Notes: a model not told the origin generated them from the letters alone. Counted from the stretch's first letter, positions 18,730 through 31,989 are shown. The stretch: 64,000 nucleotides of DNA from Candidatus Sericytochromatia bacterium (GCA_035285865.1 JAYKHS010000003.1:96001-160000), one strand, 5' to 3'. Translations and numbers: made by a program.

Positions 18730-20001
18730 ATGGCCCACCTGCTCGATCCTGGCCTGATTGCAGGCCTGCTCACCCTGATCGTCCTCGAGATCGTCCTCGG
18801 GATCGACAATCTCGTCTTCGTCGCGATCCTCTCCGACAAGCTCGAGCCCTCCCAACGGGACAAGGCACGCGGGATCGGCCTCTCGCTCGCGTTGGTCATG
18901 CGCCTCGGTCTGCTGGCGTGCATCTCCTGGATCGTGGGCTTGAAGGAGCCCCTGTTCCGGATTGCGGCCTTCGCACCCTCGGGCCGGGACCTCATCCTGC
19001 TGGCAGGCGGCCTGTTCCTGACTTTCAAGGCCACGATGGAGCTGCACGAACGCCTCGAGGGCGCTTCGCACGGTCCGGGCAAGGCGACGCAGCACGCGCC
19101 GTTCTGGAGGGTGGTGGCCCAGATCGTGCTGCTGGACCTCGTGTTCTCCATCGACTCCGTCATCACGGCAGTCGGGATGGTGGACAGCCTCGGAATCATG
19201 ATCACGGCCGTGCTGGTGTCGATGGGCGTGATGATGCTGGCCGCCAAGCCGCTGTCACGCTTCGTGAACGAGCACCCTACCGTCGTCGTGCTCTGTCTGT
19301 CCTTCCTCCTGATGATCGGTTTCAGCCTGATTGCCGAGGCCTTCCACGTCCACGTGCCCAAGGGTTACCTGTATGCGGCCATCGGTTTCTCGGTCCTCAT
19401 CGAGACCTTCAATCAGGTGCGCCATCGCAATGCCGCAAGGGCGGAAGCCACCCGGCCTTTCCGGCTGCACACCACGGAGCGCGTGCTGCGCCTGCTCGGG
19501 GATCTGCCCCCGCAGGCCATCGACGAAGCGGGTTTCGCGGAACCCGAGCGCCAGCTGGTCTCAGGGGTCCTGGCCCTGGCTGAACGTCCCGTTGCCACGT
19601 GGGCCACGCCCCGATCCGCGATCGTCTGGCTCGACGCGACCCGCCCCGAGGCCGAGCTCCGCGACAGCCTGCTGCGCGCCCCCCATGGCCTGATGCCGGT
19701 CGGCGAGGGCAGCCTCGACAAACCCATCGGCATCGTGCGCGCCAAGGAAGCCCTGGCAGAATTGGCTGCCGGAAGGTCCTTGGCCGAACTGGCCCGAAGC
19801 ATGCCGATCCTGTCGGCGCCGGCAACGACCCGGCCGTTCGATCTGCTCGACCTCCTGCGTCGTTCGGATGACAACCTCGTGTTGCTGCTCGACGCGCAGG
19901 GACAGGTCGCGGGCCTCGTGACCCCGGTGGACATGCTGGCGGCCATCGCCGGCCAGCCGAACGAGGCCGCAGGCTTGCCGGGCACCGCCCTGCCTGCCTG
20001 A
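18730..20001 (+). CDS. TerC family membrane protein with CBS domains (YoaE/YegH-like)
   Basis: [26 protein letters not shown] and [12 protein letters not shown]-terminal CBS pair ([17 protein letters not shown]). Confidence 0.92.
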
Positions 20002-20035: not shown

Positions 20036-21907
20036 ATGTCCGAGTCCAACGCTCCGCCCCCCGGTGCGACAGCCCCGCTGCCGCCGTGGTTCCAGGCCCT
20101 GAGCGACCACTACAGGGCCAAGGCCGCCCACCAGTTCCTGCTGCACTTCAACATCCAGGACCACGTGTTGGTCGAGGGTCGCATCACGACTGTCCGGGAC
20201 CTGCTGGTGCAACGCCTTGCGGATCGCTTCCTGATCGTCACCTACAGCCTGTCCCGCGGCATCGGCTTTCCCGCGACGGGGCAGGCTCAGGCCGAGAGCC
20301 TCGGGCGTGAGCCCGGCCTTGGGCGTCTGCTGGGCTTTCGCGAGTCAGCCGAGGGCAACGTGCCGGTGGACCCCACGCGAGACGACCGGGACTTCCATCG
20401 GCTCCAGGGGCAAGGACGGATCAGCCCGTTGCAGCCTCCGGACGAGGCTCTGCCAGCCATCGAAAGGGCCTTGCGCCAAGGGGGCAGGCGTCTGTGCGTG
20501 CTGCTGGAGCACGTGGACAAACTGGCGCCTGCAGATGCCCGCGGTCGCGACCAGTGGATCGCCGTGGAAACACTGCAACGCTGGGCCCTCGACGGAGAGC
20601 TTGCCGAGCATGGCCATCTCGTCGTCATGCTGGCCGCGGAGCATGGCCAGGTGGCCGCTGCCGTGCAGGGGGCCAACAGCGGCACGGTGTCCCTGCAAAT
20701 CCCGCTGCCCGATGCGGCAGCACGCCGGATCTATCTCGACCATGTGCTCGCGGATTCCCATTTCGCCCGCCTGGCGTGGCAACCGGACTTCACGCCCGCG
20801 GACCTGGCCGGGCACACCGTGGGTTTCTCCCTGCGCGACATCCTGAACACCTTGAGGTTGGCGGCCGCGACGGGCAGGGCGATCGGCCAGGACCTGGTCG
20901 CCGAGCGCAAGCGGGACATCATCCGTCTGGAGAGCCACGGGCTGCTGCAGATCGTCGAAACACGTCATGGGCTCGACGCCATCGGCGGGCTGGAACACGT
21001 CAAGGCCTATCTGGGCGAAAAGATCGGCAACATCCGGAGCTACCTCGACCTGAACGCCCGGCACGAGCACACGGACGCCTCTCGCGACGCCCTCGCGCGA
21101 GCGCTGGCCTTGGTGCCCCGGGGCATCCTGCTCGCCGGTCCTCCCGGGACGGGCAAGACCATCCTCGCGGAAGCCTTGGCCCACGGCACCCAGCTGAACA
21201 TGGTCAAGCTGCAGGACATCCGCAGCATGTGGGTGGGCGAGAGCGAGCGGAATCTGACGAAGGTTCTGGATCTCCTCGTGGCCCTCGCCCCGGTGCTGGT
21301 GTTCGTCGACGAAATCGACCAGGCCCTTGGCAGCCGTGGAGGGCCTACGGCGGGCGCCGGGGGGGATACCGACAAACGGATCTTCGGCAAGCTGCTGGAG
21401 TTCATGGGAGACAACCGGCACCGCGGCCGTGTACTGTGGGTCGCGGCCACGAACCGGCCCGACTTTCTCGATGCCGCGATGCTCCGACGGTTCGATCGCG
21501 TCGTCCCGATCCTCGCCCCCGACCGGGAGGAACGGACGGCGGTGCTCGCCACCCTTGCCGGCCGTATCGGAACCCGGTACGGCACCGACGTGGACCTGGG
21601 CGCCATCGCGGAACGAACCGCAGGCCTGACGGGTGCCGGCCTAGAGGTCATCGTGCGGCGGGCCGCGGAGCTCGCTACCGACAACGTCATCACCCAGCAC
21701 GGGCTCATCACGGCATTGGCAGACCACAAACCCAACCACGACCCCGCTGTCTACGTGGAGCAGGCCATGCGCGCCCTCGTCGCGGCCAACTTCTTCTCGA
21801 TGCTACCCAGACATCTGCCGCCCGATCTCGCGGAGTTGGTCGAGGCCTGCCGGCAGGAGCGCAGCAACGCCCCGCTCGAACGGGCCTTGGCCCGCCTGAT
21901 GCCTTGA
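20036..21907 (+). CDS. AAA+ ATPase with degenerate N-terminal and active C-terminal AAA modules (Ycf46/SpoVK/Cdc48-like)
   Basis: Walker A GPPGTGKT, pore loop SMWVGESE, Walker B VFVDEID and SRH ATNRPDFLDAAMLRRFDR; the N-half has only a remnant Walker B (LLEHVDKL). Confidence 0.92.
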   Translation: MSESNAPPPGATAPLPPWFQALSDHYRAKAAHQFLLHFNIQDHVLVEGRITTVRDLLVQRLADRFLIVTYSLSRGIGFPATGQAQAESLGREPGLGRLLGFRESAEGNVPVDPTRDDRDFHRLQGQGRISPLQPPDEALPAIERALRQGGRRLCVLLEHVDKLAPADARGRDQWIAVETLQRWALDGELAEHGHLVVMLAAEHGQVAAAVQGANSGTVSLQIPLPDAAARRIYLDHVLADSHFARLAWQPDFTPADLAGHTVGFSLRDILNTLRLAAATGRAIGQDLVAERKRDIIRLESHGLLQIVETRHGLDAIGGLEHVKAYLGEKIGNIRSYLDLNARHEHTDASRDALARALALVPRGILLAGPPGTGKTILAEALAHGTQLNMVKLQDIRSMWVGESERNLTKVLDLLVALAPVLVFVDEIDQALGSRGGPTAGAGGDTDKRIFGKLLEFMGDNRHRGRVLWVAATNRPDFLDAAMLRRFDRVVPILAPDREERTAVLATLAGRIGTRYGTDVDLGAIAERTAGLTGAGLEVIVRRAAELATDNVITQHGLITALADHKPNHDPAVYVEQAMRALVAANFFSMLPRHLPPDLAELVEACRQERSNAPLERALARLMP

Positions 21908-24072
21908 GGATCGTGCAGCTGGCCCTCTGGGTGGGGGCAATCTGCATCGTCGGGTGGTACGTCGCTGCCGAATGTGCCGAATGGCTGGCCCTCTCCTCGG
22001 AACGGGCACGGGCCGCGCTTCAGGGCAGCCTCCTGGGGGCTGCGCTTGGTGGAGGTCTCGTGGTGCTCGAGGTCTTGCTGCTGGACCCGAGCCTCTTCCG
22101 GACACCTGCACGCTGGGGTGGAGAGGCCCTGCGCGGGGCTGTCGTCGGACTGGTCTTCGGGACGGTCGGATTGCTGGCGGCGGCGGCCGCCTATGCGGGG
22201 CTGGGGCATGCCCCATGGGCCAGAGGCCTCTCGTGGGGGGTGCTGGGTCTCGCCACGGGCCTGACCGAAGGCTTCAAGGCGGCTTCGGCACGGCGGGCCA
22301 GGGCAGCCGGGGTCGGTGCCGGTGTCGGCGGCCTGCTGGGCGGTTGGGTGGTCGAACAGGGCCCCGAGTGGGCCGGGCCGTTGTCGGCCAGCCCGGAAGG
22401 CGCCGTCCTGGTGATGACGATGGGCCTTGCCGCATTGGGAGTCTGCCTAGGGGCCGGCATGGGCCTGGCGCAGGTTCTCACCCGCCGGGCCCGGCTGATC
22501 GTCCTGACCTCCCCGCTCGGAAAGCAGCTGGGCCTCGCCTTCGACATCGGCAGTGTCGCGGCCATCGAGACGATAGGCAGCCTGAAGGCCACGTGGACGC
22601 TCACGGGCGACCCCGGCGTGCTGTCCAGGCATCTGTCCCTGGAGCGCCGGGGGGGAAGCCTTCTGGTGCGTCCGCTTGGCCAAGCACAGGTCGACCGTTC
22701 GGATCGCCCCATGCGGCCGGATGAACTCGGTCAGCTGGCGGATGTGGCGTTCCATCGATTGTCCCCTGAAGCGGCCGTCCACCTGCGGGACGGCGAGATC
22801 CTGCGCATCGGCGAGGGAACCCACCTGCACGTCAGTCTGGAACGTCTGCAGCGGACGAACGATGGCCCCCGTTCGCGGATTCCCGCTTTGGTGCTGATGA
22901 TTGCGGCAGCGTGGGCCATCATCCCTGCCGCGACCTCCGAGGCCCGAACGAATGGCAAGCCGGAGCTGGCCATCCGACTCCAGGATGCCCGCATCCTGCC
23001 GGCGCGAGACACCACGGGCCAGTGGCGCGCACGGGCGAACGTCCTCGTCTTGCGCGGGGATGACCCGGTCGAGGGACTCGGTGCCGAAGCCTTCAAGGCC
23101 TCGCTCGACGGCAAGGCCATCCCGATCGCCGCTGCCGGCACGGGGCATGAGTCGCGTCAACCCATCTGCGTGGCTCTCGTCCTTGACCGATCCGGGAGCA
23201 TGCTGGCGAAGGCGCGTCCCCACGGCCCGGCCAGCCGCATGCAAGTGGTGCGGGAAGCAGCCTTGGCTTTCGTCAGACTCCTGGATCCGCGAGACCAGGT
23301 CATGATCGTTTCCTTCGACCGGAACGTGGACGTCCAGGCCCCGACCAGCGATCGGGATCGCCTCGAGCGCGCCATAGCCCAGATCGAACCGGACCGCTGG
23401 GGTGCCGGGACCACGAACCTGCGCGGCGCCGTCGAACGGGCCCTGAACGAGCTGGCCCGGCACCGCGGCCCGGATGCCGGACTCAGGCTGGCCCTCGTCG
23501 CCCTGACGGATGGCGCGCACAACGTGCCCGGCGCACCTTCGCCGGATAGTCTTGTCCGCTCGGCCCGCTCCATCGGCTGCCCGATCCACGCCATCGCCTA
23601 CGGACGCACGGACGCCCCGCGGGGCAGTCGGGACTGGGTCGACGTGCCCGGATTGAAGCAACTCGCCGGGGAGGGGGGCGGCATCTTCCAGATGGCTCCG
23701 GACGTGGCCGCGCTGAATGACGCCTGGGGGCGCATCCTGCGTGCCATCCGCGGCAGCTACGGCCTCGAGCTTGCCCTGGGGCGACGCGTCCCCGACCCCT
23801 ACACCCACGTCCTGGAGGTGCGGCTCGCCGGCACCACCGCTCGCGCAAGCGGCCACGTCAGCGGCGGCATGGTCCCCTCACTTCCGGGAACAGCAGGCAT
23901 GCGCCTCGCCATCTGGCTGCCGATGGCCCTGCTGCTCGCGCTGGGCGGTCTTGCCGTGCCACCGGGGTGGCGTCGCCTGGAACGCCTGCTTGCCCCCACG
24001 GAGCACCCGCCGCCCATCCGGAGCGAGGCCTTGGCCCTCTGGGAAGCCCACAAGAAAAGGGGCGCGTCATGA
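21904..24072 (+). CDS. multi-TM + FHA-like + vWA domain membrane protein
   Basis: TTG start overlaps the ATPase TGA. About 6 Gly-rich TM helices; FHA-like segment (TIGS...GDPGVLSRHL...LRDGEILRIG); one TM; vWA with MIDAS DRSGS, T and LTDG; C-terminal TM. Confidence 0.85.
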   Translation: MRIVQLALWVGAICIVGWYVAAECAEWLALSSERARAALQGSLLGAALGGGLVVLEVLLLDPSLFRTPARWGGEALRGAVVGLVFGTVGLLAAAAAYAGLGHAPWARGLSWGVLGLATGLTEGFKAASARRARAAGVGAGVGGLLGGWVVEQGPEWAGPLSASPEGAVLVMTMGLAALGVCLGAGMGLAQVLTRRARLIVLTSPLGKQLGLAFDIGSVAAIETIGSLKATWTLTGDPGVLSRHLSLERRGGSLLVRPLGQAQVDRSDRPMRPDELGQLADVAFHRLSPEAAVHLRDGEILRIGEGTHLHVSLERLQRTNDGPRSRIPALVLMIAAAWAIIPAATSEARTNGKPELAIRLQDARILPARDTTGQWRARANVLVLRGDDPVEGLGAEAFKASLDGKAIPIAAAGTGHESRQPICVALVLDRSGSMLAKARPHGPASRMQVVREAALAFVRLLDPRDQVMIVSFDRNVDVQAPTSDRDRLERAIAQIEPDRWGAGTTNLRGAVERALNELARHRGPDAGLRLALVALTDGAHNVPGAPSPDSLVRSARSIGCPIHAIAYGRTDAPRGSRDWVDVPGLKQLAGEGGGIFQMAPDVAALNDAWGRILRAIRGSYGLELALGRRVPDPYTHVLEVRLAGTTARASGHVSGGMVPSLPGTAGMRLAIWLPMALLLALGGLAVPPGWRRLERLLAPTEHPPPIRSEALALWEAHKKRGAS

Positions 24073-25226
24073 GTCGCATGGCACGCCTCGAGCAGATCCC
24101 GTGGTGGAACAGCGCGATGTTGGCAGAAGCCACCGTCCTGCTGGCCGGGGTCGGTGCCGTGGGCAACGAGGTGCTCAAGAATCTGGCCCTGATGGGCGTG
24201 GGGCGCGTGGTTCTGGTCGACAGGGACAAGGTCGCGCTGCATAACCTCTCGCGCAGTGTCCTCTTCCGACCGGAACACGTCGGCATGGCCAAGGCGAAGG
24301 CCGCTGCGGAGTCGGCGCTCGGACTGGCCCCCGAGGCCGTCTTCGTGCCCCTCGAGATGGACGTGGCAAAGGTTTCGCCAGCCCTGGCCGCATGGGTGGA
24401 CGTCGCGATCGGGGCCTTGGACAGCCTTGCGGCACAGGTGCGGCTTGGCCGACTGTGTCGGGTTGCCGGCATCCCTTGGGTCCAGGGGGGACTCGGCGAC
24501 GCCACGGACCTTTTCAAGGCCACGCTGGCCACGCATCCGGGCGAGGAGGGGCCTTGCCTCGAATGCCGGCTTCCCGAGGGCCTGGGAGACCGCCTGCTGG
24601 CCGAGGACCTGCCCCGCGGAGGGTGTGCCGAGGCCGGTCGAGAAGCCGAGGCAGCCGGTGGCGTCCCCTCGACGCCGATGACCGCCTCCATTCTGGGCGG
24701 GCTGCTGGCGCTCGAGGCCCTAGCCGTCCTTCACGCGCGCCGTGGTCTTCCCGGTCCGGACAGCCCCCCGGCGTGGGGCACCCACGCCCATTGGAATCTC
24801 CGCGTGCCCTCGGTCCACGCTCTTCGGGGCACGACGGTCCGACCCGAATGCCCGTGGCACGAACCCGTGCGCGTCCACAGGCTGGACCGCCAGATGGCCA
24901 ACCTGCCGATTGCCCACCTCTGGGACGTGCTTGGGCCATCAGGCATGGCCGGCCTCGAGGGTCACCTCGTCCGACACGCGGCCTGCCCAGGATGCAGGGC
25001 CAGCGCCGACTGGCGCTGGTGCCCCGACCTCCCTGCCCCGTGCCCTCACTGCGGTACCCCGGACCCGGCGGCCGAAAGTCTGCGTCATCTGCCGCGTGCA
25101 CACGCCCAATGCGCCCGTACGCCGCGCGCACTGGGAATCCCGCCGGGCATCGGCCTCCGCTGGTTCGATGGGGACGAGGCATGGACCGTGACGTGGCCCG
25201 GCGTCCTCGGGGACCTCAGCCCGTGA
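24069..25226 (+). CDS. E1-like ubiquitin-activating enzyme (ThiF/MoeB/UBA superfamily) with C-terminal Zn ribbon
   Basis: ATGA overlap; GVGAVG, DRDKV-HNLSR, CLEC, putative catalytic Cys in GGCAE (24624-24626), CPWH, then CPGC/CPHC. Confidence 0.9.
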   Translation: MSRMARLEQIPWWNSAMLAEATVLLAGVGAVGNEVLKNLALMGVGRVVLVDRDKVALHNLSRSVLFRPEHVGMAKAKAAAESALGLAPEAVFVPLEMDVAKVSPALAAWVDVAIGALDSLAAQVRLGRLCRVAGIPWVQGGLGDATDLFKATLATHPGEEGPCLECRLPEGLGDRLLAEDLPRGGCAEAGREAEAAGGVPSTPMTASILGGLLALEALAVLHARRGLPGPDSPPAWGTHAHWNLRVPSVHALRGTTVRPECPWHEPVRVHRLDRQMANLPIAHLWDVLGPSGMAGLEGHLVRHAACPGCRASADWRWCPDLPAPCPHCGTPDPAAESLRHLPRAHAQCARTPRALGIPPGIGLRWFDGDEAWTVTWPGVLGDLSP

Positions 25227-25858
25227 GCCCCTTGGCACGGACCATCCTGGCGAGCCTCGTGCCCGTTGCCGCCACGCTGGCTGCCATCCGCAGCCTGCCC
25301 GGCGTCCTCGTGTTGGCGCCGGCCGGCACCATGCTGTCCGTGCTGGCCGCGGCCATCGCCTGGCGGACGAGGCGGCCGAATATCGCTGCCTGGGCCACGG
25401 GCAAGGCCGCCGGGTTCCTCGCTGGCATCGGTCTGCTTGCCTCAGGTGCCGTGGTGCTGGCGACCCGAGGCGATTGGCGGCAGGGTGCCCTCGCAACCCT
25501 GGCCTGGGCGGCAGGCCTCGCCGCGGCGACGTGGCGGGGAGCCGTGGTCCGCGAAACACCCGGAAGACACTTGTTCCGCCTGATCCGGGAAAAGCGCCGC
25601 AGCCCGACTGGTTCGTGTCCGGTGCCGAATTGCCCGGAGCCGCCACTGTCCTGCGACAGGAACGGCTGTGCCCGCGTGCTGTGCGGCACGCACTGGATCA
25701 TGGCCGAGGCCAGATGCGCCGAGTGCGGGCACGACGGCCTTCTGGCCCGACCGAACGCGGGCCGCCGTCACCCCGCTTGGACGGCAGCCCCACTAATTCT
25801 GGCACTGGCCGGAGGCATCGCACTGTTGATGACGTCGTCGCTGCTCCGGGGAACATGA
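25223..25858 (+). CDS. membrane protein with RING-like Cys/His finger (candidate E3 ligase)
   Basis: GTGA overlap; about 4 TM, then C-x4-C-x6-C-x4-C-x4-C-x2-H-W-x6-C-x2-C, then a C-terminal TM. Confidence 0.7.
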   Translation: MSPLARTILASLVPVAATLAAIRSLPGVLVLAPAGTMLSVLAAAIAWRTRRPNIAAWATGKAAGFLAGIGLLASGAVVLATRGDWRQGALATLAWAAGLAAATWRGAVVRETPGRHLFRLIREKRRSPTGSCPVPNCPEPPLSCDRNGCARVLCGTHWIMAEARCAECGHDGLLARPNAGRRHPAWTAAPLILALAGGIALLMTSSLLRGT

Positions 25859-26137: not shown

Positions 26138-26766
26138 CGGCGTGGCTGGCCGAGCACCTGACGCGCCAGTGGGATGGCCTGCAAGCCCTGATCACGCGGC
26201 TCGGGGCGGCATCGCTGATCGAAGCCGAACCGACCGCCTGGCTGGACCCCGTGGGCCGCAAGGCACCCGTGCGCATCGACCTCGCCTTGCGAACGGTCGC
26301 CATCGTGGACATGGAGGTACGCGGTCGGTCTCTGGTCCGGGAGTTCGGCGGGGACGCCGAAGGCTTCGTTCGCGTCACGGATCCGGCCCCACTGGACTGG
26401 GAGCCGGTTTTCGCCGAACCGCTCGAGAACAGCTCCCACGGCCCTATCCGGGTCCGCCTCTTCCTTCCGGATGACCTGAACCGGCCCGCAAGCCCCGAGG
26501 TGTATTTCCTCGACCGGGTCTGGCATCCGAACATCCGATGGGACAACGGACTTGCCTGCTACGGTGACAAGCAGGCCTGGGCCCAGCCGGACCGATCGCT
26601 GGCCGATCTGGTCCGACGCCTGTTCCTGATGACGGCCTTTGCAGACGCCGGTGCGGTGAACATGGACGAGGCGCATGCCCTGAACAAGCAGGCCCTGCGC
26701 TGGTACCGCGACACGCTGGCGGAGATGCCCGAACTCTTCCCGCTGTCCCGCAGGATTCCCGCTTGA
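26134..26766 (+). CDS. E2 ubiquitin-conjugating enzyme (UBC fold)
   Basis: GTGA overlap; LFLPDD..PASPEVYF..VWHPNIRWDNGLAC (HPN plus catalytic Cys at 26557-26559), SLADLV and ALNKQALRWY. Confidence 0.92.
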   Translation: MTAWLAEHLTRQWDGLQALITRLGAASLIEAEPTAWLDPVGRKAPVRIDLALRTVAIVDMEVRGRSLVREFGGDAEGFVRVTDPAPLDWEPVFAEPLENSSHGPIRVRLFLPDDLNRPASPEVYFLDRVWHPNIRWDNGLACYGDKQAWAQPDRSLADLVRRLFLMTAFADAGAVNMDEAHALNKQALRWYRDTLAEMPELFPLSRRIPA

Positions 26767-27413
26767 AGGCAGCACGCTGCTGGCCCGGTCTGCCTGACGG
26801 GGCCCCGCGGGTGCTGGTCGAGGAGGCGTTCCTCGAACGGTTGGCGCGCTTCGGAGAGCGCTCGGCAATGGCCGGCCGGGAGGCCGGAGCCTTTATCCTG
26901 GGCAAGGCCGAAAAGCTTCGTGATGGCTGGCAGATCGCCCTTGAAGAACTGCAGGAGATCGAAGGAGAGGCCGACGCCGAGTCCTTCACCTTTCCTGCCG
27001 AGGCGTTCCTGAAGGCCCACCAGAGATGGCGAACCTGGTCCGTGGACGAGATCGCGGCCCGTCCCGGCACGACGTGCGTCGTCGGCTGGTGCCACACCCA
27101 TCCCGGACACGGCGTGTTCCTGTCGCCGCCGGATCTCGAGGTGCAGCATCGCAAGTTTCCCTTGCCCTTCCAGATTGCTCTGGTGGTCGATCCCCTTGCC
27201 GAATCAGCCGACCGGCGGATGGGCCTGGTGGCGTGGGTGAGAGAGGGCACGCTCTCGCCCCACCTGCCGGACGGCATCGCGTACTTCCCCACCGCCGCTC
27301 CCAGGCAAGCCGATCAGAAACGGCCCTTTGCGGTCGCCGGACAGCACTGGAACTGGGGCATCCTGCCCCTGCTGGCGGCCGCAGGCTGGTGGCTCTGGCA
27401 CCATGGCTTCTGA
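26763..27413 (+). CDS. JAB/MPN+ (JAMM) metallo-isopeptidase with C-terminal membrane anchor
   Basis: TTGA overlap; EAGAFILG and GWCHTHPGHGVFLSPPD (E...HxH-x7-S-x2-D), ALVVDP; hydrophobic tail WGILPLLAAAGWWLW. Confidence 0.92.
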   Translation: MKAARCWPGLPDGAPRVLVEEAFLERLARFGERSAMAGREAGAFILGKAEKLRDGWQIALEELQEIEGEADAESFTFPAEAFLKAHQRWRTWSVDEIAARPGTTCVVGWCHTHPGHGVFLSPPDLEVQHRKFPLPFQIALVVDPLAESADRRMGLVAWVREGTLSPHLPDGIAYFPTAAPRQADQKRPFAVAGQHWNWGILPLLAAAGWWLWHHGF

Positions 27414-27428: not shown

Positions 27429-27734
27429 GTGAACGGCGAGCCAGAAGGGCCCATCATCCGCTCCATACGGGACCTGGCCTCAGGGAAGTGGGTCAAGCCC
27501 CCGAGTCCCGAAGGCCCGGTGCCCGGACCTGCATCGGCAGCGACCGGACGCCCGGACCTCGAGGAACGCTTGCTGCACGCGGAGCGTCTGGTCGCCGATT
27601 ATCAAGAGGCGCTTGTCTCGGCTCATGAACAAGTGCGTGCCCTGCAGGACCAGGTCGCCCTCCTCGAGGATCGGATCCGTACCTTGAATCTCGAACAGGG
27701 CATCCGGCCCGGTGGCGAACGGGAGGCCCTGTGA
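27429..27734 (+). CDS. small coiled-coil hypothetical protein
   Basis: GGAGG RBS and GTG start; heptad pattern LEERLLHAERLVADYQEALVSAHEQVRALQDQVALLEDRIRTL. Confidence 0.75.
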   Translation: MNGEPEGPIIRSIRDLASGKWVKPPSPEGPVPGPASAATGRPDLEERLLHAERLVADYQEALVSAHEQVRALQDQVALLEDRIRTLNLEQGIRPGGEREAL

Positions 27735-29597: not shown

Positions 29598-30686
29598 TCA
29601 GTGCAGGCGAGGACGCCCCCGGGGGGCTTCGCCGCGACTGCGGGACGCGAAGGCCAACTGGCTTTCCCCGAGCAGCACCGCTGCGTGCGCCCCGGTGATC
29701 CGCCCCTCGTTCAGAGCACGAAGGATGGCGCCCTCGAAGGCGCTTGGCGGCGGCCCCTCGCGCAGTGGTTCCCGCTCCATCCATCCGCGGGCATGCATGT
29801 CGGCCGCCAGTTCGGAGGCGTGCTGGGCCTCGAGCAGGCCCAGTTCGCGAAGACGGTCCAACCATCCGCCCATGGACAGACCGTGGGCCGCCTTGAGGAG
29901 CAGCAGCTCGCGGAGGTCCATGCGCGTCACACCGCGTCCGGGCTCGCGCTCGGCCACCAGGCGCGGCACCAGCAGGGCGCGGGCGAAACGGCGAATCCAG
30001 CGCGGCTCCTGGTCTGCCTGGCCGGCCAGATGCCAGCCGAGGACCTCGGCCGCCCCCTCCTGATCGAACGCCGGGTCCGACTCCGTGGGCAGGACGGCAA
30101 CGGGCCAGGCTCCGACGTGTACGGGGCGTCGCCCAAGCGGAGCGACCATCGCAACAGGAGCGTGCACGACGACCCACCCCCGGCGCTCCATCTCGGCACC
30201 CAGATGTCGCCAGGGCTGCAGGCCCTGCCCCCAAAGAACCCTGAGGCGATCGGCCCGCTGTTCGGCTTCCTCGGCTGAGCGAATCGGGCCGAGCAGGCCG
30301 GCATCGAGGTGCGCCGGCTCCTCATGCCATGTCCCGAGTGTCCGAACACCCTCCGCGCGGTCGACGCCATCGAGTATCCGGGTGGTCAACCGCGCCGCCG
30401 TCCGTCCTGCCAGCACCACCCCGACGGGCCAGACCGGAGCCCTCAGCGCTTCGTGCGTAGGGCGGCCCAGGTCTTCGGGTGTCACGCCCATCTCGCGCGC
30501 CAAGGCGAGAAGCGTGCGCCCCGAAGGCTGCGCACGGCCGTGCTCGTACTGCAGGAGCGACGTGTGGCTCAGACCGATGCGGCCAGCCAGCTCACGCAAG
30601 GTCAGCCCCGCCCTGACCCGTACCTTGCGGAGGTGTCGCCCCTGCCGCAGAAGTGTGTCCTCGCCCCAAGCCATGGCCATGCCCAT
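29598..30686 (-). CDS. XRE-family HTH fused to degenerate ImmA/IrrE-like domain
   Basis: LTLRELAGRIGLSHTSLLQYEHG HTH; C-terminal FARALLVP and GRITGAHAAVLLG are typical of XRE-IrrE fusions; HExxH absent; GGAGG RBS. Confidence 0.8.
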   Translation of the reverse strand: MGMAMAWGEDTLLRQGRHLRKVRVRAGLTLRELAGRIGLSHTSLLQYEHGRAQPSGRTLLALAREMGVTPEDLGRPTHEALRAPVWPVGVVLAGRTAARLTTRILDGVDRAEGVRTLGTWHEEPAHLDAGLLGPIRSAEEAEQRADRLRVLWGQGLQPWRHLGAEMERRGWVVVHAPVAMVAPLGRRPVHVGAWPVAVLPTESDPAFDQEGAAEVLGWHLAGQADQEPRWIRRFARALLVPRLVAEREPGRGVTRMDLRELLLLKAAHGLSMGGWLDRLRELGLLEAQHASELAADMHARGWMEREPLREGPPPSAFEGAILRALNEGRITGAHAAVLLGESQLAFASRSRGEAPRGRPRLH

Positions 30687-30789
30687 CTCGCGAACCTCCC
30701 TGAGCGAATCGACCCGAACCCGATGCCATACCAGCATCAAGTTGGCAGCGATCCCAGCAGGACGATCCGTTGAAGGTGTCAGGAACGTG

Positions 30790-31989
30790 TCAGGCCGGCG
30801 TGACGGCCGACAGGATGCCCAACTCGCGGCCGACCCTGCCGAAGGCATCGAGGGCCCTGCCGAGGTCCTCGCGGGTATGTCCTGCCGTCACGATGGCGCG
30901 CACGCGCTCCGCACCGCGGGGCACGGTCGGGAAACCGATGCCGACGCAGAAGACACCTTCCTCGAAGAGCCGATCGGACAGGCGCATGGCCAAGCGCGTG
31001 TCGCCCGTGATGACGGGGGTGATGGGCGTGGTCGAGACACCGATGTCGAAGCCCATGCGCCCGAGGCCTTCCTTGAAGAAGCGCGTGTTGTCCCAGAGGC
31101 GAGCAAGAAGCGTCTCGTCCTCCTCGAGCATCCTGAAGGCCTCGCGCACGGCCGAAGTGACCGCCGGGGGATGGGAGGTACTGAACAGGAAGGGGCGCCC
31201 CCGCTGATGCAGCATCTCGATGAGAACTCGCGGGCCCGCAACGTAGCCGCCGAGCACGCCGATGGCCTTGGATAGGGTACCCACCTGAATGTGCACCCTG
31301 CCATGCAGGCCGAAATGGTCCACGGTACCGCGGCCCTGATGCCCGAGGACGCCGGAGGCGTGGGCATCGTCGACCATGATGATGGCCCCGTGCTCTTCGG
31401 CCGCATCGACGATATCGGGCAAGGGGGCGACGTCGCCGTCCATCGAGAATACACCGTCCGTCACGACGAGGGTGCGGCGATACTGGCCGCGAACCTCCTC
31501 GAGGACCCGACGCAGGTCCGCCACGTCGGCGTGCTTGTAGACCTTGATGGTGGCCCGGGACAGGCGACAGCCGTCGATGATGCTCGCGTGGTTGAGGGCG
31601 TCCGAGACGATCACGTCTTCCTTGCCGAGGACGGACCCGACCGTGCCGGCATTGGCCGTGAAACCGCTCTGGAAGACGACGGCCGCCTCGGTGTGCTTGA
31701 ACCGGGCCAGGTACTGCTCGAGCTCGACGTGCGCGGCCATCGTGCCGGCGATGGTCCGGACCGAAGCCGAACCCGCCCCGCAGGTCCGAACGGCCTCGAT
31801 AGCCGCCTCGCGCAGACGCGGATGGTTGGCCAGCGCCAGATAGTTATTGCTGGAGAGGTTGACAACCTCGCGGCCGTCCACGCGGCAGACGGGCTCCTGG
31901 GCGCCATCAAGCACACGGGCCATCCGGAAGGCCCCCTGGGCCATCAACTCGGCCCGCTCGTCCTCGAGGAACTGCAAGGGATGGGTCAC
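30790..31989 (-). CDS. kbl: glycine C-acetyltransferase (2-amino-3-ketobutyrate CoA ligase)
   Basis: SNNYL, LNHASIIDG, DGVFSMDGD, DDAH and GTLSKA (PLP Lys); adjacent to tdh. Confidence 0.9.
   Translation of the reverse strand: MTHPLQFLEDERAELMAQGAFRMARVLDGAQEPVCRVDGREVVNLSSNNYLALANHPRLREAAIEAVRTCGAGSASVRTIAGTMAAHVELEQYLARFKHTEAAVVFQSGFTANAGTVGSVLGKEDVIVSDALNHASIIDGCRLSRATIKVYKHADVADLRRVLEEVRGQYRRTLVVTDGVFSMDGDVAPLPDIVDAAEEHGAIIMVDDAHASGVLGHQGRGTVDHFGLHGRVHIQVGTLSKAIGVLGGYVAGPRVLIEMLHQRGRPFLFSTSHPPAVTSAVREAFRMLEEDETLLARLWDNTRFFKEGLGRMGFDIGVSTTPITPVITGDTRLAMRLSDRLFEEGVFCVGIGFPTVPRGAERVRAIVTAGHTREDLGRALDAFGRVGRELGILSAVTPA

Follow-up and report, generated by a model that had tools for sequence, protein, structure and literature searches.

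A transmembrane finger protein encoded between E1 and candidate Ubl genes

We analyzed a stretch of 64,000 nucleotides from Candidatus Sericytochromatia bacterium (GCA_035285865.1, JAYKHS010000003.1:96001-160000), referred to here as the window. It contains a cluster of genes for ubiquitin-like conjugation, in which the gene for a 211-residue membrane protein is positioned between those for an E1-like enzyme and a candidate ubiquitin-like protein (Ubl). The membrane protein carries a finger of eight candidate zinc ligands, and zinc binding is predicted (Table 1). The GTG at 25223 overlaps the stop codon of the E1 gene as GTGA, the orthologues align from it, and from the sequence it is likely the start of the finger gene. 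An alternative ATG at 25181 gives a 225-residue form. A preliminary description of the window had presented the gene as hidden inside a longer open reading frame (ORF). This is accurate for a raw ORF list, in which the frame has 488 codons and the first ~277 lie over the E1 gene in another frame, but the 225-residue call from ATG 25181 is already in the public protein collection.

The finger reads CPVPNCPEPPLSCDRNGCARVLCGTHWIMAEARCAEC, the translation of window positions 25616-25726 (+) in the frame of ORF 24392-25858. It is composed of seven Cys and one His with the spacing C-x4-C-x6-C-x4-C-x4-C-x2-H-W-x6-C-x2-C. The four pairs of candidate ligands that a RING-type finger requires are present in all eight members of the finger family, and each of the eight ligand residues is unchanged in all eight aligned sequences, as are Gly155, Trp158, Ile159, Arg164 and Gly169. 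The aligned proteins are 28-49% identical to the window protein. Ligand spacing is the same in seven members, while the remaining one has x7 and x1 at two places. Apart from the seven ligand Cys, no Cys is conserved in the eight-member alignment. Cys density is unremarkable, as six-frame translation of this high-GC window gives 12 stretches of 37 residues that are free of stops, begin with Cys and hold at least seven Cys. The ordered ligand pattern occurs a single time in the same translation. The decisive point that places the motif beyond chance is conservation of the ligands across the family, not Cys density alone. Both the exact read and this invariance bear out the C5-H-C2 motif with a Trp after the third ligand pair that had been noted earlier, and the locus and the family alignment likewise place it on a multi-transmembrane (TM) protein between the E1 and Ubl genes.

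The AlphaFold helices of the protein match the architecture of four N-terminal TM helices and one C-terminal TM helix given in the preliminary description. Hydropathy finds three plus one segments in the window protein, compared with four plus one in three order-level relatives. Residues 104-183 form a basic soluble domain of about 80 residues that houses the finger. Three relatives have five clear TM segments. In these, Lys and Arg residues number 12-16 in the finger-bearing loop, including the basic linker, 6-7 at the N-terminus and 4-5 in the loop from helix 2 to helix 3, whereas the remaining loops and C-terminal tail have 0-2. The tail after the last TM helix is 2-7 residues long with 0-1 Lys or Arg. 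From this bias, the positive-inside rule predicts that the finger is cytoplasmic, in line with the preliminary description, and not periplasmic. The order-level finger proteins, including that of locus L018, whose contig lacks the downstream part, have an extra N-terminal Cys3His zinc ribbon (CxxC...C...H), predicted to be on the same side of the membrane as the finger.

Table 1 Positions of the finger gene, its parts and the neighboring genes in the window
Feature	Position	Strand	Basis or remark
Gene for 211-residue TM zinc-finger protein (zinc binding predicted)	25223..25858	+	GTG start at 25223
Four N-terminal hydrophobic helices, residues 3-24, 31-49, 60-80, 85-103	25229..25531	+	AlphaFold helices; hydropathy
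Basic juxtamembrane linker, short helix residues 113-122, Leu117 invariant	25532..25615	+	AlphaFold and alignment
Eight-ligand finger, residues 132-168	25616..25726	+	C132, C137 / C144, C149 / C154, H157 / C165, C168
C-terminal TM helix, residues 184-209	25772..25849	+	AlphaFold; hydropathy
Multi-pass membrane protein gene, upstream flank	18730-20001
Classical AAA+ ATPase, 623 residues, one AAA domain (residues 364-490)	20036..21907	+	Pfam AAA (PF00004) 4.2e-30
Multi-TM vWA protein, 722 residues, vWA residues 423-603	21904..24072	+	VWA_2 8.5e-15
E1-like adenylating enzyme (ThiF domain)	24069..25226	+	ThiF 1.2e-34
Candidate Ubl, 90 residues	25865..26137	+	ThiS E 0.088 only
E2, 210 residues	26134..26766	+	Invariant W-H-P-N and Cys142 (alignment)
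JAB/MPN metallopeptidase	26763..27413	+	Prok-JAB 9.4e-7
Coiled-coil protein	27429..27734	+	Kept in genus
307-residue protein with N-terminal hydrophobic segment	27731..28654	+	Kept in genus
TM-anchored M48 peptidase, N-terminal TM segment	28752..29591	+	Kept in genus
416-residue helix-turn-helix protein gene, downstream flank	29598-30848		Divergently oriented

Predicted fold and ligand order of the finger

AlphaFold modeling with the eight-sequence alignment gave a mean predicted local distance difference test (pLDDT) score of 81, with about 88-93 over the finger, and a model of the finger domain alone scored 81.7. The two models agree on the order of elements. A knuckle with Cys132 and Cys137 is followed by a β-hairpin (141-143/152-154) and then by a helix (155-160), with Cys144 and Cys149 in the hairpin loop and Cys154 and His157 at the start of the helix. 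This knuckle-hairpin-helix order is that of a treble clef and implies, as modeled, a cross-brace that joins pairs 1 and 3 and pairs 2 and 4. A second search for structural neighbors of the model gave RING domains in seven of seven cases among the matches listed. The neighbor lists hold no AN1, B-box or IBR-only entries, an absence that is no evidence against those folds. Weak Foldseek rows and the ESM Atlas model point to RING/PHD-like folds, the ESM Atlas rows, all below the bar or under 0.9, serving as leads only. Weakly and consistently, these predictions suggest a RING-like fold.

Comparison to the Prok-RING_1-like fingers of the same lineage indicates how the ligands differ. Matches to Prok-RING_1 (PF14446, cut-off 29.1 bits) were found in 17 of the 401 genomes of the phylum, eight of them over the cut-off, and 11 such fingers were aligned. 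The spacing ligand4-x4-ligand5-x2-ligand6-W is common to these fingers (11/11) and to the finger family (8/8), and the third pair reads H..C-W in the former versus C..H-W in the latter. C4HC3 is the prokaryotic RING ligand pattern in the available part of a review, and the finger does not fit this order with H-x2-C-W. The earlier proposal of a ligand-swapped finger therefore holds, in that the spacing is that of the Prok-RING_1-like fingers of the lineage and the Cys/His order of pair 3 is exchanged.

Two further groups of Prok-RING_1-like fingers were observed. The genome of the window has, at L019 (G000:C14:24501-24623), an ORF of 491 codons whose product combines hydrophobic segments at its N-terminus with a Prok-RING_1-like finger, CPYC...CSVC...HHEGCW...C. 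This finger scores 24.3 bits, which is the best value in the genome and below the cut-off, and such matches occur in seven of seven other genomes of the same family. ORFs of ~550 codons at L029, L030, L031 and L035, in the same class, open with a Prok-RING_1 finger that exceeds the cut-off (32.7-48.6 bits) and end in apparent WD40-type repeats; a long repeat region rich in Lys and Pro separates the two.

A conserved, apparently membrane-centered conjugation operon

The cluster has the composition of a conjugation operon, with a ThiF-type E1, an E2 with HPN and a catalytic Cys, a JAB peptidase and an order conserved in eight loci. The finger gene is directly 3′ of the E1 gene in all eight loci with context (the window, L013-L018 and L042), and these keep the order AAA+ / TM-vWA / E1 / finger / Ubl / E2 / JAB. 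Ubl, E2 and JAB genes follow the finger gene in the seven loci that extend downstream. Start and stop codons overlap by four bases at AAA+|vWA, vWA|E1, E1|finger, Ubl|E2 and E2|JAB. Between their finger and Ubl genes, order-level loci L016, L017 and L042 have an additional JAB gene; at L016 (7338-7844, -) it matches Prok-JAB at 9.5e-14, more strongly than the shared JAB.

Pfam and NCBIfam scans found no RING-like domain in any other gene of the cluster, which leaves the E3 slot otherwise empty. Hydrophobic segments are present in at least four products, namely the TM-vWA protein, the finger protein, the 307-residue protein and the M48 peptidase, so the system looks membrane-centered. PADLOC gave only generic AAA, E1 and JAB domain matches for the neighbors, and the cluster is therefore not a catalogued defense system. 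Both flanking genes are in the same order in genus-level loci, which suggests that the cluster has a stable place in the chromosome and is not a mobile island. The product of the upstream flanking gene may be TerC-like.

The AAA+ ATPase is Cdc48/PAN/FtsH-like at the domain level, with an NCBIfam CDC48 match of 8.3e-39 that is far under the cut-off. Its N-terminal 350 residues (window 20036-21085) have no Pfam match and no sequence relative in the PDB. An inactive first AAA domain is described for related systems in the accessible part of Kaur et al. 2020 (PMC7159879). The vWA domain of the second protein is flanked by hydrophobic segments 326-344 and 668-686 and may for this reason face outward. 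A weak FHA-like stretch ahead of it is sub-threshold, with E 0.021 here and 0.032 in L016. The E1's C-terminal region is Cys-rich (CPWH..., CPGC...C...CPHC) and looks like an additional zinc-binding module.

The candidate Ubl has an invariant C-terminus, ...S-x-[GA]-[TS]-V-A, in six of six orthologues, and has neither a Gly-Gly nor a longer tail. Judged from this sequence, either the E1 would activate the C-terminal Ala of the Ubl, or a JAB would trim the last three residues after the Gly/Ala. The E2 is of the canonical UBC type, as its profile matches PEX4 (4e-8) and the UbcH5 family (about 1e-4) in the PDB.

A small and rapidly diverging family

Few relatives of the finger protein were found. 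In a word-indexed search of 5.8 billion clusters, the sole match was the protein of the window itself, and the family profile retrieved three proteins. Exhaustive HMMER searching of 1.84 billion representatives gave seven matches at E ≤ 0.001, of which four are real. P0005, P0008 and P0009 were rejected as long repetitive proteins that match through TM or low-complexity stretches. Within the phylum, 12 of 401 genomes had matches and seven were accepted (E ≤ 3.9e-6), comprising the genome of the window together with three from its genus and three from its order. The other five, at E 0.004-0.008, were rejected as short, several with internal stops. A GTDB-wide scan with the neighboring E2 as query and a metagenome scan with the finger as query returned the same lineage only. 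By these sequence searches, the family has very few members, all in Sericytochromatia-type genomes. Among the proteins compared, divergence is fastest in the finger protein, with 50% identity within the genus versus 91% for the Ubl, 77% for the E2 and 82-83% for the AAA+ ATPase.

A candidate membrane-anchored E3-type adaptor

We hold with moderate confidence that the finger protein is a divergent, ligand-swapped, membrane-anchored RING-like E3 adaptor. This reading is based on the coupling of its gene to the E1 gene and its conserved position abutting the Ubl and E2 genes, on the absence of another RING-like gene from the cluster, on the RING-like model together with a canonical E2, and on the precedent of the systems of Kaur et al. 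2020 and of an archaeal small RING protein, both compared below. For the finger protein we infer zinc binding, cross-brace wiring, E2 binding, ligase activity and substrates alike.

As an E3-type adaptor, the product of the translationally coupled finger gene would be an inner-membrane protein with four TM helices, a cytoplasmic domain of ~80 residues and one further TM helix. Its two-zinc finger would be a RING-like cross-braced treble clef in which Cys132/Cys137 and Cys154/His157 hold one zinc and Cys144/Cys149 and Cys165/Cys168 hold the second, with the His/Cys order of pair 3 swapped relative to prokaryotic C4HC3 RINGs. The finger would serve as the docking site for charged E2~Ubl at the membrane, probably by way of its conserved Val134 loop and the Trp158/Ile159 face of the helix, and so steer the transfer of Ubl to targets in or near the membrane. 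The JAB peptidase and the Cdc48/FtsH-like AAA+ ATPase would then process the tagged targets. Prediction of a complex from the E2 alignment, two Zn and the finger alignment gave a score of 0.00 with the fold of the partner uncertain, and is neither for nor against binding.

Several results weigh against an E3-type RING. The AlphaFold models are zinc-free and based on 7-8 sequences, and Foldseek found nothing in the PDB at E ≤ 0.001 with the full model or the domain model. Of the treble-clef variant proposed at the outset, the element order and the structural neighbors, RING-like and not IBR- or zinc-ribbon-like, hold up, while every structural score is under significance. With Pfam, the whole protein is unmatched at E up to 0.1, and at E up to 10 no RING, PHD, B-box, IBR, AN1 or zinc-ribbon family matches any of seven finger domains; NCBIfam and PADLOC also have no match for the protein. 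PF14446 has four matches elsewhere in the same genome (E up to 10) and none at the finger locus. Alignment of the finger family to the 11 same-class Prok-RING_1-like fingers with hhalign gave 3.8% probability over 12 columns. A profile search of PDB sequences with the family found nothing significant, and the sole borderline sequence match that spans the entire finger is to an AN1 domain, 1x4v (E 0.13). Profile comparison, which had been suggested as a means of connecting the finger to RING or related families, has thus failed to do so, as no sequence or profile method gives a link to RING, Prok-RING, PHD, B-box, IBR or AN1. RING domains follow the consensus C-x2-C-x(9-39)-C-x(1-3)-H-x(2-3)-C-x2-C-x(4-48)-C-x2-C, which the spacing (4, 6, 4, 4, 2, 7, 2) and order (CC-CC-CH-CC) of the finger do not fit. 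At the position following the eighth ligand, where the Arg/Lys linchpin is usual in RING E3s, the finger protein has an invariant Gly. The first six ligands fit AN1 (CC-CC-CH) equally well, and to our knowledge AN1 is not known as an E3.

These ligands raise the fairly unlikely alternative that the finger is an AN1- or B-box-type binuclear treble clef and the protein a non-catalytic adaptor that tethers the Cdc48-like AAA+ ATPase or a client peptide to the membrane. The eukaryotic AN1 proteins Cuz1, ZFAND1 and ZFAND2B cooperate with Cdc48/p97 and the proteasome, not as E2 stimulators, and a Cdc48/PAN/FtsH-like AAA+ gene heads the operon here. In the available part of the Cuz1 paper (PMC5035049), AN1 (PF01428) is described as cross-braced CC-CC-CH-HC. 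The finger, for which a cross-brace is predicted, agrees with that description in its first six ligand types and in the spacing C-x4-C ... C-x4-C-x2-H. The 1x4v match aligns ligands 1, 2, 4, 5 and 6, and the residue before ligand 5 is hydrophobic in seven of eight members, like the conserved Phe of AN1. The agreement ends after ligand 6. The full pattern, C-x4-C-x2-H-x5-H-x-C in its second half, is not matched, as ligand 7, after x7, is a Cys in place of His, and ligands 7 and 8 form C-x2-C instead of H-x-C. Ligand 6 is followed by an invariant Trp, as in Prok-RING_1-like fingers, and not by the Arg of the described AN1. The zf-AN1 model, run at E up to 10, is silent at the finger locus of five genomes with members of the family, the named structural neighbors of the model are RING domains, and the gene is coupled to E1 and abuts Ubl and E2, not the AAA+ gene.

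It is decidedly unlikely that the ligands instead form two sequential zinc sites, IBR-like or a double zinc ribbon, in a protein that would be a structural anchor, a conjugation substrate or a regulator without an E2-activating role. The arrangement C-x4-C ... C-x4-C-x2-[CH] and the opening CP..xC resemble the IBR consensus, sequential sites may be compatible with the predicted models, whose structural scores are all weak, and the finger protein evolves faster than its neighbors, as adaptors and substrates often do. However, both models place ligands 5 and 6 at the N-terminus of the helix after the hairpin, which is the treble-clef position and pairs them with the first knuckle. There is no Pfam IBR or zinc-ribbon match, and RBR-type catalysis would lack a spare conserved Cys, since all seven invariant Cys are needed as ligands. 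Very improbable, in our estimate, is a role as partner or regulator of the downstream membrane M48 metallopeptidase. Burroughs et al. 2011 are said to propose such a role, in their abstract, for AN1, B-box and LIM fingers of prokaryotes that lie beside membrane peptidases. The M48 gene, with its N-terminal TM segment, is at the same position in genus-level loci. However, order-level loci L016, L017 and L042 have no M48 match and keep the finger, E1, Ubl, E2, JAB, AAA+ and vWA genes. Five genes also separate the finger gene from the M48 gene, whereas it overlaps E1.

Relation to known systems

Membrane-anchored Prok-RING_1 proteins of E1/E2/Ubl/JAB operons were reportedly predicted to be E3s by Burroughs, Iyer and Aravind in Mol Biosyst in 2011. 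Like Prok-RING_1 proteins as Pfam describes them, the finger protein combines TM helices with a predicted-cytoplasmic eight-ligand finger and is encoded beside E1, E2, Ubl and JAB. It differs in giving no hidden Markov model or profile-profile match, in the C-x2-H rather than H-x2-C of pair 3, in outer pairs that reverse theirs (C-x4-C first, C-x2-C last) and in a loop of 6 residues between pairs 1 and 2 versus 10-12 in theirs. The TM helices, cytosolic E2 and Cdc48-type AAA+ ATPase also invite comparison, by analogy only, to Hrd1, Doa10/MARCH6 and the MARCH family, the eukaryotic multi-TM RING E3s of membrane quality control, which likewise join TM helices to a RING-type finger on the cytoplasmic side. 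Unlike the finger protein, these have another TM topology and finger subtype, and no sequence relationship to them is detectable.

The prediction of membrane-anchored prokaryotic RING E3s in E1/E2/Ubl/JAB operons is cited by Kaur, Burroughs, Iyer and Aravind (eLife 2020; PMC7159879), who describe ternary conflict systems of FtsH-type AAA+ and vWA proteins with E1, RING-type E3, Ubl-E2 and JAB. As far as the accessible text of that paper goes, those systems resemble the cluster in gathering into a single neighborhood a classical AAA+, a divergent vWA protein, E1, E2, Ubl and JAB, together with an E3 of RING type that has its own gene and additional α-helical proteins, and they are rare in cyanobacteria. 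On the same text, the cluster is unlike them in that no MoxR gene adjoins it in the part of its surroundings examined, the vWA protein is multi-TM where theirs is fused to a β-propeller, Ubl and E2 are separate genes, and there is no EAD1 and no caspase-like effector.

The Ub/E1/E2/srfp/Rpn11 operon of Caldiarchaeum subterraneum similarly encodes an E1, a eukaryote-like E2, a small finger protein and a JAB-type peptidase, and its small RING protein was required for substrate modification in vitro, according to the part of Hennell James et al. (Nat Commun 2017; PMC5654768) available to us. As described there, srfp is a soluble RING-H2 protein with canonical spacing, Ile30/Trp58 E2 contacts and an Arg69 linchpin, whereas the finger protein is embedded in the membrane, departs from the canonical ligand order and has an invariant Gly where srfp has its linchpin. 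The candidate Ubl of the cluster terminates in ...V-A, in contrast to the Gly-Gly plus tail of archaeal Ub.

In the literature searched, supplements being outside the search, bacterial membrane RINGs in E1/E2/Ubl/JAB operons appear as predictions, and no bench study was found. The general idea dates from 2011, and the finger protein would be a divergent form of this genome-predicted kind of membrane RING E3.

Implications

The cluster as a whole might be a bacterial counterpart of endoplasmic-reticulum-associated degradation (ERAD)-type membrane protein surveillance, tagging and extracting membrane proteins, although we consider this unlikely. Its parts would then be a multi-TM RING-like E3, a cytosolic E1, E2 and Ubl, a Cdc48-like AAA+ extractor and a JAB recycler, with the outward-facing vWA domain and cytoplasmic FHA-like module as membrane sensor. 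The same unlikely scheme would include a new RING lineage with a Cys/His-swapped third pair and a Ubl conjugated through a non-Gly-Gly C-terminus.

If the finger protein is an E3-type adaptor, the E3 slot of such operons can hold a finger that no current family model recognizes. As the finger is invisible to these models, Prok-RING-based surveys will under-count such systems. The protein is small, its soluble domain has ~80 residues and its cognate E1, E2 and Ubl are encoded alongside, so that the E3 question is directly testable in vitro. If active, it would offer a minimal system for a RING-type ligase that is anchored in the membrane and works with a Cdc48-like ATPase, and would add a data point on the interconversion of RING, PHD and AN1 ligand patterns.

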